Origin: a virus
Reading direction: 5' to 3' (one strand)
Length of the DNA stretch: 64,000 bases
IMG/VR virus record: IMGVR_UViG_3300021430_000595
Shown here: in pieces, positions 1-23,414 of the stretch
Layout: each line of letters starts with the position of its first letter
Numbering within the stretch: the stretch's first letter is position 1
The notes under the pieces: generated by a model
Told to the model about the DNA's origin: nothing
Seen by the model: only the letters and a program-made list of their open reading frames with translations
Databases searched by the model: none
Position numbers and translations under genes: made by a program

Positions 1-5
1 TAAAC

Positions 6-34
6 AAAAAAACCTCGGGAGGTTATCCCGAGGT
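6..34 (-). terminator. Intrinsic terminator after leader peptide (attenuator terminator)
   Basis: Minus strand reads ACCTCGGGA-TAACC-TCCCGAGGT (9-bp perfect stem) followed by a T tract. Confidence 0.85.
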
Positions 35-63
35 CTTCATGTATTTCGTTTCAATTAAAACAA

Positions 64-159
64 TTACACCATCCCTCGGGACACACGAATATCAGCCACC
101 TCTGCCCATTTCGAACAGGTTGTAAATGACATTGTGATAATATGTGTAAATCGTTTCAT
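64..159 (-). CDS. 31-aa putative leader peptide MKRFTHIITMSFTTCSKWAEVADIRVSRGMV
   Basis: ATG at 159, TAA at 64-66. AAGGAG lies 9 nt upstream, a promoter lies further upstream and a terminator lies 30 nt downstream. Too short for the ORF track. Confidence 0.6.
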   Translation of the reverse strand: MKRFTHIITMSFTTCSKWAEVADIRVSRGMV

Positions 160-189
160 TGAATTTTTCTCCTTTTTTTAAATCTTGTA

Positions 190-207
190 CAAAGGTAAAG
201 ATAAATA
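190..207 (-). promoter_or_regulatory. Bacteroidota-type -7 box (TACCTTTG, 190-197) plus TATTTAT motif (201-207)
   Basis: Matches the TAnnTTTG consensus, with TTTG further upstream, and points into the leader ORF. Confidence 0.6.
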
Positions 208-284
208 TTCGAAAAAACAAGAAAAGTCAAAAAAAAATTTAAAAAAAGTTTTTACCGTATATACAGTAATCATAGTTGCCGGGA

Positions 285-291
285 TATTTAT
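285..291 (+). promoter_or_regulatory. TATTTAT putative phage late promoter for the envelope cluster
   Basis: The same motif precedes most virion genes in the window. Confidence 0.5.
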
Positions 292-329
292 GTATAACCA
301 AATAACAAATTAAAACACAAATTACAACT

Positions 330-593
330 ATGAAAAACTTCTTTTCTAAACTTTTCAATGACAACAACACCATTAATGAGAAATCTGTTGTTGGATTCGG
401 AGCATTCGTAATGATGGTAATAACTCTTTTGGTAGACATCACCACTGGTGTTTTAGGAAGAGAAATGCCAATCCACGAGTTCGTTTTTGATGGATTCTTG
501 GTAATCACATTAGGTTCTTTCGGTATTGCATCGGTAGACAAATGGATTAACAATAAAAACAATAAAGGTGAAAATACCCCTTCTGAAGATTAA
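330..593 (+). CDS. Small two-TM membrane protein (holin-like topology, function unknown)
   Basis: Two hydrophobic segments and a charged C-terminus; 87 aa. Confidence 0.6.
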   Translation: MKNFFSKLFNDNNTINEKSVVGFGAFVMMVITLLVDITTGVLGREMPIHEFVFDGFLVITLGSFGIASVDKWINNKNNKGENTPSED

Positions 594-623
594 TTCAGTA
601 GGTTGTTTTAAATAGACATCAAA

Positions 624-1127
624 ATGAAATTCATCAAGAATATTATTCTGTGTGCCCTTATTTTATTACCGATACTATCTTTAAAAGCACAAAACAGTAA
701 AACAATTTTTATTGAGCCTGTAACCAACAATATCAAAGTTGGTGTTTTTGAAGGTAATAAGAATTTATCATTCGGTGTAAGAAATATCATAGAAGAAATC
801 ATAATCGAACAGGACACCTTCTCATTAGTTGGTGATAAATCTTCTGCGGTTTATAGATTACAAGTTGAACTAATCTTTTTTGATATTGTGACCACCAACT
901 CAGGTATAAGTATTTTCCATGAAGATAAAACAACGACAGTTATCAGAATGAAAGGTATACTCTATAAGGGTGATAAAAAAATAAAACAAGAATTTGCTGA
1001 AGGTAAATCAACTGAGATATCAACCTCTACATTAATAATAGATGAAGGTGGTAAATTTAATCAACAATCAGCTAGTTCAGCAATAAAAAAGACAACCCAA
1101 GCACTAATAACTAAATTAATACTATGA
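624..1127 (+). CDS. Secreted alpha/beta protein, possibly CsgG/TolB-N/LptE-like fold
   Basis: Signal peptide ending LKA|Q. Strand-helix-strands-helix pattern resembles the CsgG-like neighbour. Confidence 0.5.
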   Translation: MKFIKNIILCALILLPILSLKAQNSKTIFIEPVTNNIKVGVFEGNKNLSFGVRNIIEEIIIEQDTFSLVGDKSSAVYRLQVELIFFDIVTTNSGISIFHEDKTTTVIRMKGILYKGDKKIKQEFAEGKSTEISTSTLIIDEGGKFNQQSASSAIKKTTQALITKLIL

Positions 1128-3031
1128 AAAAACTAATCCTACTTATCTTAGGGATTGTACTCACAATCTCAGGTTACTCACAAGAAATCGGTAACTATCA
1201 AAATTTTACTACCATAAAGAGAAATGACACAATTGATGTTATTTTTCAGTATAAACCTGATACCACTAAAGATATTAGGTCATTTCAAATTGATTTTCAA
1301 TTTAAAAAACAATTATTTACTCACTTTTCAACCACAGTCGATAGTGACGTTAGTACAATGACTCCAGCAATTTCATACAATCAATATGAAAATTACAAAT
1401 TTGGTTCATATGATACTTTAACTGCTAAATACAATTATGTCTTAGATAGTAATTGGACAGTTGCTAGAAACTATTTGGTTTTATCTAGTGGTAGTCAGAT
1501 AAAAAGTGACATATACATCATACACAATAAATTCATCATAAACAATGTTGGTTCAAACTTCGTTGAGGATAGTGTTCATGTGAATTGGGCTAGAATGTTT
1601 AAAAAAGATGGTGTGACTATCGGAGATAACATTGCAGTACTAACTCATCAAAAAATGGATTTAGAATTAATGGGTAACTTGGTGATTAGTGGTAACGTGG
1701 AATTACCTCCAACCATGAAACTTGATGGTAGAAGACCTACCGTTATTTGTACAAAATACAACACCGGTGAGTTTGTTTCAGAATCATTATGTGACACCAC
1801 AGGATTTTATAGTTTAAATAACGTAGATAAAAATACAAAATATAAGTTACTTTTAAGATTCCCTACCGACAGTATGGAAATGTTTAGAGATTACGCGGTA
1901 ACAATTTCAGATGCGGTTAAAACTTACGATGAGTTTTCATTAACAGATGTGAATCAAAATTTCCAACACCAACATTTAAAATTTGGTTTATCTCACTTAA
2001 TTGCTGATATGAATCAAAACGGTAAACTTGACGGTGGTGACCCTTATTTAATTTATGCAAATGTTAGTGGTCTTAAAAAAATAGACACCACAACCATGAT
2101 AAGGGTATTCCATGCAAGTGTTTATGATTCATTAGTGTTAGGTATAAACCAATGGAATGATTGGCCTAATCACATATCTGCAACGAATTTCATAACTGAT
2201 AGTGTTGGGACAACTAACTTAACTGTTGATATAAAATACTTTATTCAGGGTGATGTTGATAGAACATATTCATCTAGAGTTTGGAATAGTTCGGGTATAT
2301 TAGTTGCTAAAGCGGTGTTTAGAGGTAAGTTAGATATTGACATACCAAATACAGTTGCAACAGGAAAACAACCGGTTTATGTACCTTTTAATATAAACAC
2401 AAATGGTGATATGAATTATGGCTTACAATTTGAAATGAAGTACGAAAAAGACAAAGTTAGATTTGATGAAATAATTTCTAATTTCAATGGTGGTCCTTGG
2501 TTACAATATGTGACTCACGATGAGGTGTCAGGAACAATTAGATTTGGTGGAATGAATAACCAATTCAAAAATGGTTTAATTGGTCAATCAACGCCATTTA
2601 AGGTTAAATTTTCACCGATTGGAAATAATGATGTTGTTTCAAACATCTACATAAGACAATTAATGGATGCTTCCGATGAAAATGGTGACCATTTAAATAT
2701 AAATCTAACAACTCAAATGGCGGTTATGTTATTTAAAAGAGGATTACCGTCGGTAGATGAATATCAAGAAGTGACCGCAATGATTAGACCAAACCCAACA
2801 ACGGGATGGTTTGAATTAGAAGTTAAATTCCCTGAACCTAATATGAAAATGATGGCAACCATCTATGATGTGAATGGTAGGTTAATTCAAAATTTAGGTG
2901 AGGTATCACCAAATTATGCCGAAAGAATCGCATATAAACAAATTGATATGACATCATCCACAAATGGGAATTATTATTTGATTCTAAATAATTATAATAA
3001 ACAATTAACCAAACAATTCATAAAAATTTAA
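1124..3031 (+). CDS. T9SS-secreted protein with cohesin-like and dockerin-like modules and a C-terminal sorting domain
   Basis: Signal peptide GYS|Q; EF-hand-like ADMNQNGKLDGGD; cohesin-like GLQFEMKYEKDKVRFDEI; CTD IRPNPTTG...IYDVNGRLI...GNYYLIL...KQFIKI. Confidence 0.8.
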   Translation: MKKLILLILGIVLTISGYSQEIGNYQNFTTIKRNDTIDVIFQYKPDTTKDIRSFQIDFQFKKQLFTHFSTTVDSDVSTMTPAISYNQYENYKFGSYDTLTAKYNYVLDSNWTVARNYLVLSSGSQIKSDIYIIHNKFIINNVGSNFVEDSVHVNWARMFKKDGVTIGDNIAVLTHQKMDLELMGNLVISGNVELPPTMKLDGRRPTVICTKYNTGEFVSESLCDTTGFYSLNNVDKNTKYKLLLRFPTDSMEMFRDYAVTISDAVKTYDEFSLTDVNQNFQHQHLKFGLSHLIADMNQNGKLDGGDPYLIYANVSGLKKIDTTTMIRVFHASVYDSLVLGINQWNDWPNHISATNFITDSVGTTNLTVDIKYFIQGDVDRTYSSRVWNSSGILVAKAVFRGKLDIDIPNTVATGKQPVYVPFNINTNGDMNYGLQFEMKYEKDKVRFDEIISNFNGGPWLQYVTHDEVSGTIRFGGMNNQFKNGLIGQSTPFKVKFSPIGNNDVVSNIYIRQLMDASDENGDHLNINLTTQMAVMLFKRGLPSVDEYQEVTAMIRPNPTTGWFELEVKFPEPNMKMMATIYDVNGRLIQNLGEVSPNYAERIAYKQIDMTSSTNGNYYLILNNYNKQLTKQFIKI

Positions 3032-3911: not shown

Positions 3912-4670
3912 ATGGAAAAGACAATCATTAAAAGAGTATTATCACCAATATTGTTGGTAATACTTTGGTTTGTATTGATGTTCTTGTTTGCGAGTACTGC
4001 AACTGCTCAGGTTGTTGGTAAAACACAAACTGAACAATATAAAGCATCATTTGAGACAAGTGTAAACATTGATTCGTTAATGGATTATGAGGGCCCCCAA
4101 ATACCAATACAAATATTAAAAATTGGTATTAGTGATGAAGTTTATGAACAATATCCTGAACTTAAAGAAAAGAAAGTTGGATTGGGTGTTGCAAATATCG
4201 TTCTTGAATACTTGGAGAATCTAAATAGATTTACTTTTACTGAAGACAAAACTGAGATAAAAAATAGAATGGTTAAACAATACCAAGCATCTCAAGCCGG
4301 TATTAGTTACGATACCCTAAATGGTAGAGGTAAGATTAGATTGGCACATTATTTTGTTACAATTGAAGTGTACGATTTCTCAATAAGTGAAGATGAAACA
4401 ATTAACCTATCTGATGGTGTTAAAAATAAAATGGTAACAAGATTAGGTTTACAGGTTAGGTTCACGGACGCAGAAACAGGTCAAATAATTGCTGCTAGTG
4501 GTTTGGGTGAAGCCGTAACAATTAGAGAATTAACGTTACTTAACGATGATAATTTAAGTGAAGTTAAGTTTAATCAGTCAACCATAGGTATTAGTACCAA
4601 GAAAGCATTAGATATTGCATGTTCTAGAATTCTATTAAGAATGATTAAAAAGGGTGTATTCACCAAATAA
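3912..4670 (+). CDS. csgG: CsgG-family (curli assembly/transport-like) outer-membrane protein
   Basis: Signal peptide ATA|Q; LENLNRF..ED; LGLQVRFTDAETGQIIAASGLGEA fits the CsgG-family pattern. Likely start is ATG 3912. Confidence 0.7.
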   Translation: MEKTIIKRVLSPILLVILWFVLMFLFASTATAQVVGKTQTEQYKASFETSVNIDSLMDYEGPQIPIQILKIGISDEVYEQYPELKEKKVGLGVANIVLEYLENLNRFTFTEDKTEIKNRMVKQYQASQAGISYDTLNGRGKIRLAHYFVTIEVYDFSISEDETINLSDGVKNKMVTRLGLQVRFTDAETGQIIAASGLGEAVTIRELTLLNDDNLSEVKFNQSTIGISTKKALDIACSRILLRMIKKGVFTK

Positions 4671-4694
4671 TGAATATGTCTTTAAAAAAAATAT

Positions 4695-4718
4695 AAAAGG
4701 GGGATTTTCCCCCTTTTT
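4695..4718 (+). terminator. Intrinsic terminator within the envelope cluster
   Basis: AAAAGGGGGA-TTT-TCCCCCTTTTT. Confidence 0.75.
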
Positions 4719-4728
4719 AATGTTGTAA

Positions 4729-6237
4729 ATGAAGAACTTAAATTTTAAAAAGATTTTTTTAGTGTTTTTTATTACAATTTTTTGTAATATTGGATTCGCA
4801 CAAGTATCAACGTACACATTTATTGACCCTTGCACAAAAGAGGTGACAAATTTTAGTGTACCATTACAAGGTGGGAAGACGATGATTATATTCTTAAATA
4901 AGATTGGTTATTTTGATGCCAACGATTTATCCAATGGTAGTTTTACTAATTGGGTGAATCAAGTTTATACTGTTTATAGACAAACAAATCCTTGTTCACA
5001 GCAACAAGGTCAAGTAACACAGAATCAAATAACGACTCAAATAATAAGTGGTACAATACAATCATTGGTTGGTTCCATTCTTGCAAATAACCAAGTACAA
5101 TCATCAAATACTGAAAGTGGTTCGGTAAATGCTGGTGGTAATGATGCTGGTGACAAAGACAATAAAAATTCGGATAAGAAAAAAAATAAATCTAAGTCAG
5201 ATGGAAATAACAATTCTTCAGGAGGTGTCACAAATGGTTCTACGAATCAAAATGGAGGACAACCCCAATCAAATTCAGGGACTACTAATCAAAATGGAGG
5301 AAGTGGTGACCAACAAGGAAGTGGAACTCCAACAAACAATACAACGACTCCAAGCACAGGTAACTCAACTACAGGGGGAGGTTCAACGACTCAGCCACCT
5401 GTAAATTCAAATACCAATACCTCAACAAATACTAATACCAATACTTCTACAACAAATGGTGGTGGTAAAACTGATGAAAAACCACCACAAAATAAAACAG
5501 AGGAGGTTGGTACGTCATTAACAATGAATGTTGATGCACACAATGATAATGGGGGTGGTAGTAATAGTGGGGGTAAAGGTAATGGTAGAGCAAATCCGGT
5601 TATTATATCTTCAGATATAACATCAGCACAAAACTTAGATAAAACATTTACTCCGATTATTAATATTGGAACTAGTAAATCATCAATGACAGGTTTATCA
5701 AGTTTTGGTGTGACGGGCATGGTATGGTTAAATTTTAATCAGTTTGCAGTTTCAGGTAGATACACTAAAATTCATTATAATAAATCTAAAAAATTAAAAT
5801 TTATCCATAATTTAAACTTAACGGGAGTTTATACTTATGGAAATTATTTAGGGTTTATTGGTTATAGTGGTATAATAAATGGTGGAAAATATGGTATAAC
5901 AGGTTTTAATGTTAGTGCAGCAGCAACTGTGATTTCAATGGAAAAAAGTGGTTATTATTCACCATCAATAACCGCATTTTATACAAGACCATTTAAGATT
6001 GGTAAAAAATTAATTGTGTCTCCTGAATTATATGTAATTTCAACACCATTAGTTTACTCAACAAAAGAAAAAGTCTCAATAACAGATAGATATATAAGTG
6101 GTTTTGTTGGAAGTGGATTTGATTATCAAATTTCAAAAAGATTCAAAGTGAATGTGAATTATAAAGCAAATTTGAGTACTAATCCCGATTTTCCGGTATT
6201 ATCATTTTTCTTGATTGGAAGTAAGGTTAATTTATGA
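4729..6237 (+). CDS. Secreted protein with G/N/S/T-rich linker and C-terminal outer-membrane beta-barrel
   Basis: Signal peptide GFA|Q; long low-complexity linker; amphipathic strands ending FFLIGSKVNL. Confidence 0.7.
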   Translation: MKNLNFKKIFLVFFITIFCNIGFAQVSTYTFIDPCTKEVTNFSVPLQGGKTMIIFLNKIGYFDANDLSNGSFTNWVNQVYTVYRQTNPCSQQQGQVTQNQITTQIISGTIQSLVGSILANNQVQSSNTESGSVNAGGNDAGDKDNKNSDKKKNKSKSDGNNNSSGGVTNGSTNQNGGQPQSNSGTTNQNGGSGDQQGSGTPTNNTTTPSTGNSTTGGGSTTQPPVNSNTNTSTNTNTNTSTTNGGGKTDEKPPQNKTEEVGTSLTMNVDAHNDNGGGSNSGGKGNGRANPVIISSDITSAQNLDKTFTPIINIGTSKSSMTGLSSFGVTGMVWLNFNQFAVSGRYTKIHYNKSKKLKFIHNLNLTGVYTYGNYLGFIGYSGIINGGKYGITGFNVSAAATVISMEKSGYYSPSITAFYTRPFKIGKKLIVSPELYVISTPLVYSTKEKVSITDRYISGFVGSGFDYQISKRFKVNVNYKANLSTNPDFPVLSFFLIGSKVNL

Positions 6238-13607: not shown

Positions 13608-13976
13608 ATGATAACAAGAAACAAGAACCTGTACAAAGATGTGTTAGACACATTCTTTGACTACCCATCTATCATGGGTGAAACTTCAACAAAAATAATC
13701 AAAGAGGATGGAGAATACCAAATTTATTTTGCCGTTCCCGGATTGACTAAAAATGATTTGACAATTTCGGTTAAAGATGGTTATCTCACGGTATCTCATA
13801 AAAAGGAGTTAAATGAAAAGAATCATTCCTTCGTTTCTTCATTTAAAAAGACATATCAACTACCTGATGATGTTGATGATAAACTAATCACGGGTAAAGT
13901 TGAAAATGGTGTACTAGAAATAAGACTCCCAAAAACAGAGAAAAAATCCTCAGAACGATTAATTTCCCTGAATTAA
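13608..13976 (+). CDS. hsp20: Small heat-shock protein (Hsp20/alpha-crystallin)
   Basis: AVPGL.K, F.K...LPDDVD, ENGVLEIRLPK. Confidence 0.92.
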   Translation: MITRNKNLYKDVLDTFFDYPSIMGETSTKIIKEDGEYQIYFAVPGLTKNDLTISVKDGYLTVSHKKELNEKNHSFVSSFKKTYQLPDDVDDKLITGKVENGVLEIRLPKTEKKSSERLISLN

Positions 13977-22481: not shown

Positions 22482-23222
22482 ATGACAAACTTCGGAGAAT
22501 TAAAAACAAAACTCTTAACTAAATTAACAGAGTCTTACGCCAATAAAAAAAATGGTGAAGTTAAGGATTTAGTAAAGAAATTAAAATCAAATAAACCATT
22601 AGTGGAGATGTATGTCTTCTACGATGAGATTGAAAACTTGAATATTCAAACAAAAGATAAGGCGAAACTTTATGTGGAGTCTATTGAACCAATCTTAATT
22701 GACAAAATCAAATCTTTGAAAAAAGACATGAAAGAATTTGGAAAAATTCTTAAAGATGTTGTTGTTGAGAACAACGAGTTCTATAGTAGTTTGGATGTTC
22801 TCGCAGAAGAAAATAATATTCACAACATCTCTAAGAAAATTGATGCCAGAGAAAATATTGTTAACTACTTAGTAGCCGAAAAGAAAAAAGAAACAGTTGA
22901 AATACCAACGGTACAAATTGAAAATTTCTCATTACTAAACACAGTTTTGGTAAATAATTTTAACATCAAGTATAGTGAATTCTTAAATGAAGAACAAAAA
23001 GAAACATTTAATAAAATTGTTTCTATGAGTAATGATGAATTGTTGTCAGAAATGACTAACATTAAAAATGAACTAACAACAAAATTAGATAACTTACTTA
23101 GTGAGTCTACAGATGATTCAATGTTAAATAAATTGAAATCTGTTAAGTCTGAGGTCACTAATTCAGACGTGTCAAGATACAACTATTTTAAACTATTGGA
23201 ATTAAAAAACGGATTAATTTGA
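22482..23222 (+). CDS. Hypothetical helical protein in the head module
   Basis: 246 aa; LTES and LSES motifs. Confidence 0.6.
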   Translation: MTNFGELKTKLLTKLTESYANKKNGEVKDLVKKLKSNKPLVEMYVFYDEIENLNIQTKDKAKLYVESIEPILIDKIKSLKKDMKEFGKILKDVVVENNEFYSSLDVLAEENNIHNISKKIDARENIVNYLVAEKKKETVEIPTVQIENFSLLNTVLVNNFNIKYSEFLNEEQKETFNKIVSMSNDELLSEMTNIKNELTTKLDNLLSESTDDSMLNKLKSVKSEVTNSDVSRYNYFKLLELKNGLI

Positions 23223-23414
23223 TTTTTCCTCGTTTGTTCTAATTTGTTGTTTATATGCTGCTTTTAATTTTTTAGCTCTATTAACAACTGACGGTTTAAC
23301 ATACTGTTGTTTTTCTCTTAACTTTTCAGTTTGTTTTGTTTTTTGAACCTTGTATTTGTATTTTTTAAGTGCAGATTCAAGGTTCTTTTCTTTTTTGACG
23401 TTTATTATAATCAT
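23214..23414 (-). CDS. rpsU: Ribosomal protein bS21
   Basis: MIIINV...NLESALKKYK.KV.K....KLRE.Q.YVKPSV.NR....KAAY. Confidence 0.9.
   Translation of the reverse strand: MIIINVKKEKNLESALKKYKYKVQKTKQTEKLREKQQYVKPSVVNRAKKLKAAYKQQIRTNEEKSN

Follow-up and report, generated by a model that had tools for sequence, protein, structure and literature searches.

A putative leader-peptide attenuator with a many-codon checklist ahead of the tRNA gene array in a large phage of Bacteroidota

Phage tRNA genes have been known for more than 50 years, and their purpose is debated between codon compensation and the replacement of tRNAs destroyed by host defences; the control of their expression has, to our knowledge, hardly been asked about. 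Attenuation by a leader peptide is a textbook mechanism for amino-acid genes. The left end of the window, by which we mean the whole stretch of 64,000 nucleotides analysed here (IMG/VR virus record IMGVR_UViG_3300021430_000595), carries on its minus strand a promoter, a short open reading frame (ORF) and a terminator, and the question arises which genes such a unit might control and what it might sense. Our reading, which we hold to be probable, is that it forms a polyvalent ribosome-mediated leader-peptide attenuator that gates the first block of a tRNA gene array (block 1), and that its ORF serves as a checklist of the codons read by the block-1 tRNAs.

The features of the leader are given below in the order of its transcription, with window positions.

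218-220, minus strand: -33 element TTG, read from the sequence, inside a block conserved in 12 relatives.
190-197, minus strand: -7 box TACCTTTG of the TAnnTTTG type, read from the sequence; relatives have TATCTTTG at the matching place.
169-174, minus strand: AAGGAG, Shine-Dalgarno-like, 9 nt ahead of the ATG (159-157), read from the sequence and peculiar to the window copy.
64-159, minus strand: leader ORF of 31 codons plus the stop TAA (66-64), read from the sequence.
91-156, minus strand: putative sensor zone, codons 2-23, placed by inferred geometry; codon 23 (Asp) is borderline.
102-118, minus strand: small conserved hairpin in the ORF core, an RNAalifold consensus helix (columns 76-94 of alignment A1).
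74-83, minus strand: antiterminator strand, codons 26-29, complementary to 33-24; based on duplex energy, nascent fold and covariation.
39-69, minus strand: predicted hairpin nested in the antiterminator loop and including the stop codon; analogous hairpins occur in single-sequence folds of relatives.
6-38, minus strand: intrinsic terminator with 5' arm 34-26 (extendable to 38), loop 25-21, 3' arm 20-12 and T run 12-6.

The TTG (220-218) and TACCTTTG are separated by a spacer of 20 nt, a combination that fits the Bacteroidota promoter type. This promoter is located immediately upstream of the short ORF and is conserved in relatives. The initial annotation had listed two promoters; TACCTTTG stood, but TATTTAT (207-201) falls inside that promoter, between its -33 and -7 elements, and we saw no sign of a promoter of its own there. 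The region 5' of the ORF is A-rich and includes the AAGGAG. The ORF contains the two CGA codons already annotated, plus one CGT, and its 31-residue peptide matched no family in Pfam. In its extended form (38-26 with 20-8) the terminator stem has 13 pairs, six of them G-C. Two freshwater metatranscriptome runs cover only positions 312-613, that is, the neighbouring plus-strand gene; a 151-nt contig covers 67-216 including promoter DNA, and the RNA label of its source run is a guess.

Megablast of window positions 1-3000 against GenBank phages returned no match, and in a search for the window's left flank an exact 21-mer was absent from IMG/VR. Relatives were found through the neighbouring CsgG-like protein, which gave 80 loci on IMG/VR contigs of up to 335 kb. 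By blastn the leader was recognisable at the same place in 18 of these 80 loci with 73-79% identity, and pattern scans enlarged the set to 38 distinct leader ORFs. A pattern scan of metagenomes recovered relatives only (best identity 77.6%); most of its 120 matches are chance ones, the pattern having 18 positions (16 specified bases). The relatives are uncultured large phages, and the phage of the window is a large freshwater phage of Bacteroidota.

Promoter, ATG, frame and stop are kept in 38/38 distinct leader ORFs, whose length in the relatives is 29-34 codons and whose indels are all in-frame (6 nt inserted in the window leader, 3 nt in another lineage). The T run is invariant in all 24 aligned leaders, and the terminator is present in all relatives except one decayed lineage. 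The sequences fall into few clades and the counts are thus not independent. Variable sites at codon positions 1, 2 and 3 number 5, 8 and 11, and the pairwise differences among leader ORFs comprise 477 synonymous and 1168 nonsynonymous changes; such statistics hint, in a suggestive way only, that the ORF may be translated. The N-terminal 20 residues of the peptide are well conserved in both order and composition, and the peptide tails are unrelated between the window's subfamily and the other subfamily.

Leader 1 is decayed in L095 (2177-2441, plus strand) and likewise in L232: a 25-nt deletion takes out its antiterminator strand, the 3' arm is mismatched, no T run is left and the -7 box has degenerated. 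Downstream of this copy, the array is replaced by an odd tRNA-like gene.

These comparisons bear on whether the ORF is read at all. The leader might instead be an untranslated RNA, either an element of pre-tRNA processing or stability or a terminator-ended small RNA, with the ORF as a by-product. Such a role is consistent with a fold more stable than shuffled sequences (z -4.7), with the conserved hairpin in the ORF core and with the missing Shine-Dalgarno site in most relatives. However, Bacteroidota rarely use Shine-Dalgarno sites anyway, no Rfam family matches, and an untranslated RNA would leave unexplained both the in-frame conservation from ATG to stop across 38 variants and the match between the codon set and the downstream tRNAs (see below). 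We regard this reading as quite improbable.

The ORF-core hairpin itself (102-118) has 8 bp, is rich in G-U, and spans the Ile/Thr-Cys-Ser-Lys-Trp-Ala codons, which are the most conserved part of the ORF. Changes at third positions preserve its pairs, though they are one-sided only; our guess from the predicted fold is that it may act as a polymerase pause site.

The AAGGAG had been given a role in the initial annotation, in which the rare Shine-Dalgarno site could make the leader a reporter of ribosome state, namely of the occupancy of the anti-Shine-Dalgarno sequence by bS21, with a tie to the phage bS21 gene. The site is indeed unusual here, as SD-like cores were found in only 1-2 of 57 long ORFs of the window, and the phage does encode bS21 (23214-23414, minus strand, 66 residues, Pfam PF01165, 41.6 bits against a cut-off of 27). 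That ORF lies antisense, between plus-strand genes, and nothing connecting it to the leader was found. The proposal is not supported by the comparison with relatives: AAGGAG exists only in the window copy, while most of the 24 aligned relatives are A/T-rich at this place, a few with partial purine cores, and yet they retain everything else. Since it is not conserved with the device, the site cannot be a defining part of it, and we consider a bS21 sensor highly improbable. At most, AAGGAG would raise initiation on the window's leader only.

The regulatory choice lies in two helices. Positions 83-74 pair with 33-24 over 10 bp, with one G-U, and this pairing and the terminator are mutually exclusive; the attenuator layout of promoter, 31-codon ORF, terminator and competing helix that was first read from these letters is confirmed. 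The duplex has an energy of -17.8 kcal/mol against a mean of -8.8 in shuffled leaders, and one of 500 shuffles was as good. The full-length window RNA folds into the terminator and not the antiterminator, and the nascent RNA minus the terminator 3' arm has the antiterminator in its minimum-energy fold. As the naked nascent RNA folds in this way, failed initiation would open the block too, which supports the earlier proposal that stalling or failed initiation leads to read-through.

Covariation was examined in alignment A2 of 22 distinct sequences, which was trimmed to start at a strand picked for complementarity and so leans toward structure. The terminator is paired in 100% of cells, with three of nine pairs changed on both sides. 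For the antiterminator, 92.9% of cells are paired, four of eight pairs are changed on both sides, no shuffle of 500 was as high, and the signal is lost when the partner is slid by one to three columns. Five states of the antiterminator pair were seen, for example TCCCGAGG/CCTCGGGA (the window), TCTCGAGG/CCTCGAGA, TTCCGAG/CTCGGAA and GTCTCAG/CTGAGAC. At column 70, in the 5' arm, G is replaced by A; the antiterminator strand compensates with U in place of C, and the partner in the terminator is U throughout. This change is tracked by the antiterminator and not by the terminator, so the antiterminator strand is no mere passive copy of the 3' arm. The covariation that the initial annotation had named as a check was thus observed in the relatives for both helices.

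The first base of the strand is a third codon position in the window's subfamily (frame 2) and a second codon position in the other subfamily (frame 1). The frame of the strand thus shifts between subfamilies, which points to selection on the RNA and not on the peptide tail. The strand ends 6 nt ahead of the stop in the window. The long-tail subfamily has 13-18 nt between the end of the strand and the stop, so a terminating ribosome would mask the strand only partly; there the antiterminator has just 7 bp, about -10 kcal/mol and P about 0.05 per sequence. The antiterminator is outside the minimum-energy structure in 9 of 24 naked nascent folds.

The loose geometry of the long-tail subfamily, together with the mechanistic details being unproven, leaves room for a switch that depends on translation but has an opposite or different output, acting through Rho, RNA decay or access of RNase P. 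The invariant T run with its stem and the covariation of both helices argue instead for the classical choice between two hairpins, and we give such other outputs little credence.

A conserved 1:2 hairpin was sought with RNAalifold, and the consensus contains only the small ORF-core hairpin. Many copies in the L085-L112 subfamily start with ATGAGAC, which can pair with their antiterminator strand GTCTC(A/G)G and recurs as part of their terminator 5' arm (CTGAGAC). The folds of some relatives pair the antiterminator strand with this start region, which could equal a trp-like 1:2 pairing; this candidate was dropped, as copies with ATGAAAC retain the same strand and there is hence no covariation. 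The window fold also joined the surroundings of the start codon to the region after the stop in a long-range helix; as the consensus structure lacks this helix, it was dropped likewise.

The regulated genes had been placed to the left of the window, and the relatives agree with this: their tRNA array starts right after the T run. An array of about 25 tRNA genes was found downstream on the same strand in every relative with enough sequence. In L004, L007, L016, L018 and L020, no more than about 14 nt lie between the terminator stem and the start of tRNA-Ala(TGC), just past the T run, which leaves no space for a promoter, so that block 1 is reachable only by read-through. The window's last eight bases in this direction (TTTGTTTA) are those preceding tRNA-Ala in L018 and L020. 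The window's own tRNA block would be located left of position 1, and its target is therefore deduced from the relatives. In L008-L015 and L017 (e.g. L011, 4904-5168, minus strand), a tRNA-like gene not called by ARAGORN lies right after the T run of leader 1, with the anticodon loop TGC (Ala) and an unusual D-arm region.

In the relatives the array is split in two blocks, each behind its own leader. The second unit (leader 2) consists of a promoter, an ORF of 32-36 codons and a terminator, and has an antiterminator strand of 6-7 bp in the tail of the ORF. The tRNAs of the two blocks are as follows.

Block 1: Ala, Phe, Lys, Val, Trp, Arg(ACG), Cys, His, Ile(GAT), Met, Thr, Asp, Ser(TGA), Glu.
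Block 2: Leu(TAA), Arg(TCT), Pro, Asn, Leu(TAG), Tyr, Ile(TAT), Met, Gly(GCC), Gly(TCC), Gln, Ser(GCT).

The codons of each leader match the tRNAs of its own block. Over about 30 variants, leader 1 has a codon for all of the 9-15 block-1 tRNAs in every lineage with a readable block, and leader 2 for all of the 10-13 block-2 tRNAs; the sole exception to full cover is a doubtful Val-GAC call. Split codon families are separated between the two, with CGN, TCN and ATY in leader 1 and AGA, AGT and ATA in the sensor part of leader 2. With stretches of 31-34 codons from real genes as the null, the P value of full cover is about 1e-4 to 1e-3 in the case of leader 1 and about 7e-3 in that of leader 2. 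Own-block codon runs of 26/29 and 19/34 were seen in 0 of 300,000 draws (P<3e-6), and when the tRNAs are assigned to two blocks at random, the assignment matches both ORFs with P of 2.6e-5 to 2.6e-3.

The 14 canonical block-1 tRNAs can read 30 of the 31 codons in the window leader, all but a GGG in its tail. Each of the 14 species has a codon in the leader, and each has one inside the sensor zone (codons 2-23). Among 14,860 stretches of 31 codons from 38 long genes of the window, neither 30/31 readable codons nor cover of all 14 tRNAs occurred. All three Arg codons of the leader are CGN, the box read by block-1 tRNA-Arg(ACG), and CGN makes up 16% of the Arg codons in the window's genes; its Ser codons are all TCN and its Ile codons all ATY.

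In leader 2, codons of its own block account for 19/19 upstream of the antiterminator and 2/10 in the tail, as a stalling sensor predicts. Thr codons number 2-4 in leader 2 where tRNA-Thr(TGT) belongs to block 2, and where tRNA-Val(TAC) is gone from block 1, most copies of leader 1 are without Val; these co-changes go the predicted way but probably reflect one or two evolutionary events. As a counterpoint, leader 1 of many relatives opens with AGA CAA, which are block-2 codons.

The initial annotation, noting no run of one amino acid, had proposed that the leader may sense general translational stress such as tRNA cleavage. The direction of that proposal is supported, but a general gauge is not, since the ORF reads as a list of codons for the very tRNAs it would control.

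It could also be supposed that the ORF is an ordinary small protein gene, that the array is expressed by constant leakage of the terminator or from other promoters, and that the codon match is incidental. The conservation of the N-terminal 20 residues in their order goes beyond the need of a codon checklist and would suit a protein, and block 2 may have a promoter of its own past its terminator. On the other hand, the peptide has no Pfam match, the tail peptide is not conserved while the RNA strand within it is, in another frame, and the antiterminator covaries; moreover, the two leaders divide the tRNAs exactly at the block boundary and a promoter cannot fit before the first tRNA. A small protein gene is therefore unlikely in our view.

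Under the attenuator reading, the unit would work as follows. Transcription would start from the TAnnTTTG promoter and the 31-codon ORF would be translated behind the polymerase. If all codons are decoded promptly, the ribosome would come to the stop (66-64) and cover roughly the last 15-18 nt of the ORF including 83-74, so that the terminator (38-6) would form and transcription would end ahead of the first tRNA gene. A ribosome footprint usually extends about 12-13 nt 3' of the A-site codon, which is the basis for the geometry of the sensor zone. A ribosome that stalls on any of codons 2-22 (in part also on codon 23) because one of about 14 tRNA species is lacking would leave 83-74 free; the free strand would pair with 33-24, no terminator would form and the polymerase would continue into the tRNA genes. 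With no initiation, 83-74 would pair with 33-24 likewise and give read-through. RNase P would then cleave the leader from the first tRNA. The outcome would be a demand-driven supply of exactly those tRNAs that are in shortage. That the ORF is translated, that ribosomes stall on it, and in which direction and how strongly the leader responds are points that we infer.

The nearest known systems are the enterobacterial leaders of ilvGMEDA (Ile/Leu/Val) and thr (Thr/Ile), which are multivalent leader-peptide attenuators of amino-acid operons. The likeness includes a promoter, a short ORF with regulatory codons of more than one kind, an antiterminator strand at the 3' end of the ORF and an intrinsic terminator before the regulated genes. 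In contrast to these, the leaders described here address 12-15 tRNA species, most of them through 1-3 codons that are scattered and never form runs; what is regulated is tRNA genes and not biosynthetic enzymes, and the host is a phage of Bacteroidota. A further difference is that no conserved 1:2 hairpin was found here, from which read-through is predicted for the untranslated state. The single-amino-acid leaders trpL, hisL, pheL and leuL follow the same hairpin logic, whereas no single-codon run exists here.

The Rfam family His_leader (RF00514) gave a full-length match at 3-140 (minus strand) with 22.7 bits against a gathering score of 49 and E=1. This score is far under the threshold, so the window leader is not a member, and the match is an echo of shared architecture; no other Rfam family came near threshold for the window leader.

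Attenuation that tunes the translation apparatus by tRNA status is likewise seen in the pheM leader of pheST and in T-boxes. Those elements control synthetases and sense one tRNA species, whereas here tRNA genes would be controlled and many species sensed through decoding; T-boxes also bind tRNA directly and need no ribosome.

In a search of the literature, including full texts, we found no published attenuator ahead of tRNA genes in phages or cells, and no sensing element in front of phage tRNA genes. The nearest functional parallel to the phage array is the trn operon of Anabaena sp. PCC 7120, a set of about 26 extra tRNA genes that is normally silent and is induced when translation is impaired (PMC8421152). 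Its control is at promoter level, with direct repeats over the -10 box and start site (PMC8421152) and a repressor, TrcR (PMC10272220). The text of PMC8421152 on this operon contains neither "leader" nor any word beginning with "attenuat".

As for the purpose, phage tRNAs have been reported to counter host tRNA-cleaving defences (PMC10264068, PMC11464382, PMC11555353), and these papers, by their titles and abstracts, treat what phage tRNAs do. This role gives a plausible reason why supply should follow tRNA loss. A tentative possibility is that the two leaders together form a sensor of the tRNA pool which answers host tRNA-cleaving defences, or a shut-off of tRNA supply, species by species. 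The loss of any of about 14 tRNAs (block 1) or about 12 (block 2) would stall the test ribosome, and the stalled test ribosome would turn on the block that holds the replacement tRNA.

If true, no earlier regulated counter-defence of such a kind would be known, and no earlier attenuator that controls tRNA genes. A leader that lists codons would show a phage gauging decoding speed for each tRNA species and supplying tRNAs on demand. Leader-peptide attenuation, so far a matter of amino-acid metabolism in Proteobacteria and Firmicutes with one to three kinds of codon sensed, would thereby reach the translation apparatus itself, phages of Bacteroidota, and a dozen or more kinds of codon in one leader. 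The finding would also make the debate on the purpose of phage tRNAs experimentally approachable, and such a small modular part (about 200 nt) could double as a reporter of tRNA availability.

Some further features of the array were noted. A conserved spacer of about 60 nt separates the leader-2 terminator from tRNA-Leu(TAA) (L013, reverse strand, about 13732-13799), and the same region was found in L008-L020, L049, L070 and L111. The spacer has a TAnnTTTG-like box about 21-32 nt past the T run, for which the T run plus G could serve as the -33 TTG, and just ahead of tRNA-Leu(TAA) lies the motif CTTTGACAT, which hardly varies (9 of 11 copies read CTTTGACATATTGG). The spacer may provide block 2 with a second promoter that is not gated, or with a processing signal.

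Past block 2 (L008, 601-673; L077, 1290-1683; minus strand of the loci) there are a tRNA with the anticodon CTA, an amber reader given as Pyl by ARAGORN, and a tmRNA gene whose tag has 8 residues; the leaders sample neither the CTA tRNA nor the tmRNA.

The tRNA array of L013 (reverse strand) has the following gaps, in which protein-coding ORFs are located.

850-1300, reverse strand: gap in the tRNA array.
2508-2780, reverse strand: gap in the tRNA array.
3977-4531, reverse strand: gap in the tRNA array.
4686-5231, reverse strand: gap in the tRNA array.
5305-5819, reverse strand: gap in the tRNA array.

If the blocks are single transcripts, ORFs between the tRNAs would come under the same attenuator control. 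On the reverse strand of L013, ORFs of 80-150 residues are located among the tRNA genes of both blocks, one of them with CxxC pairs and an HNH-like motif.
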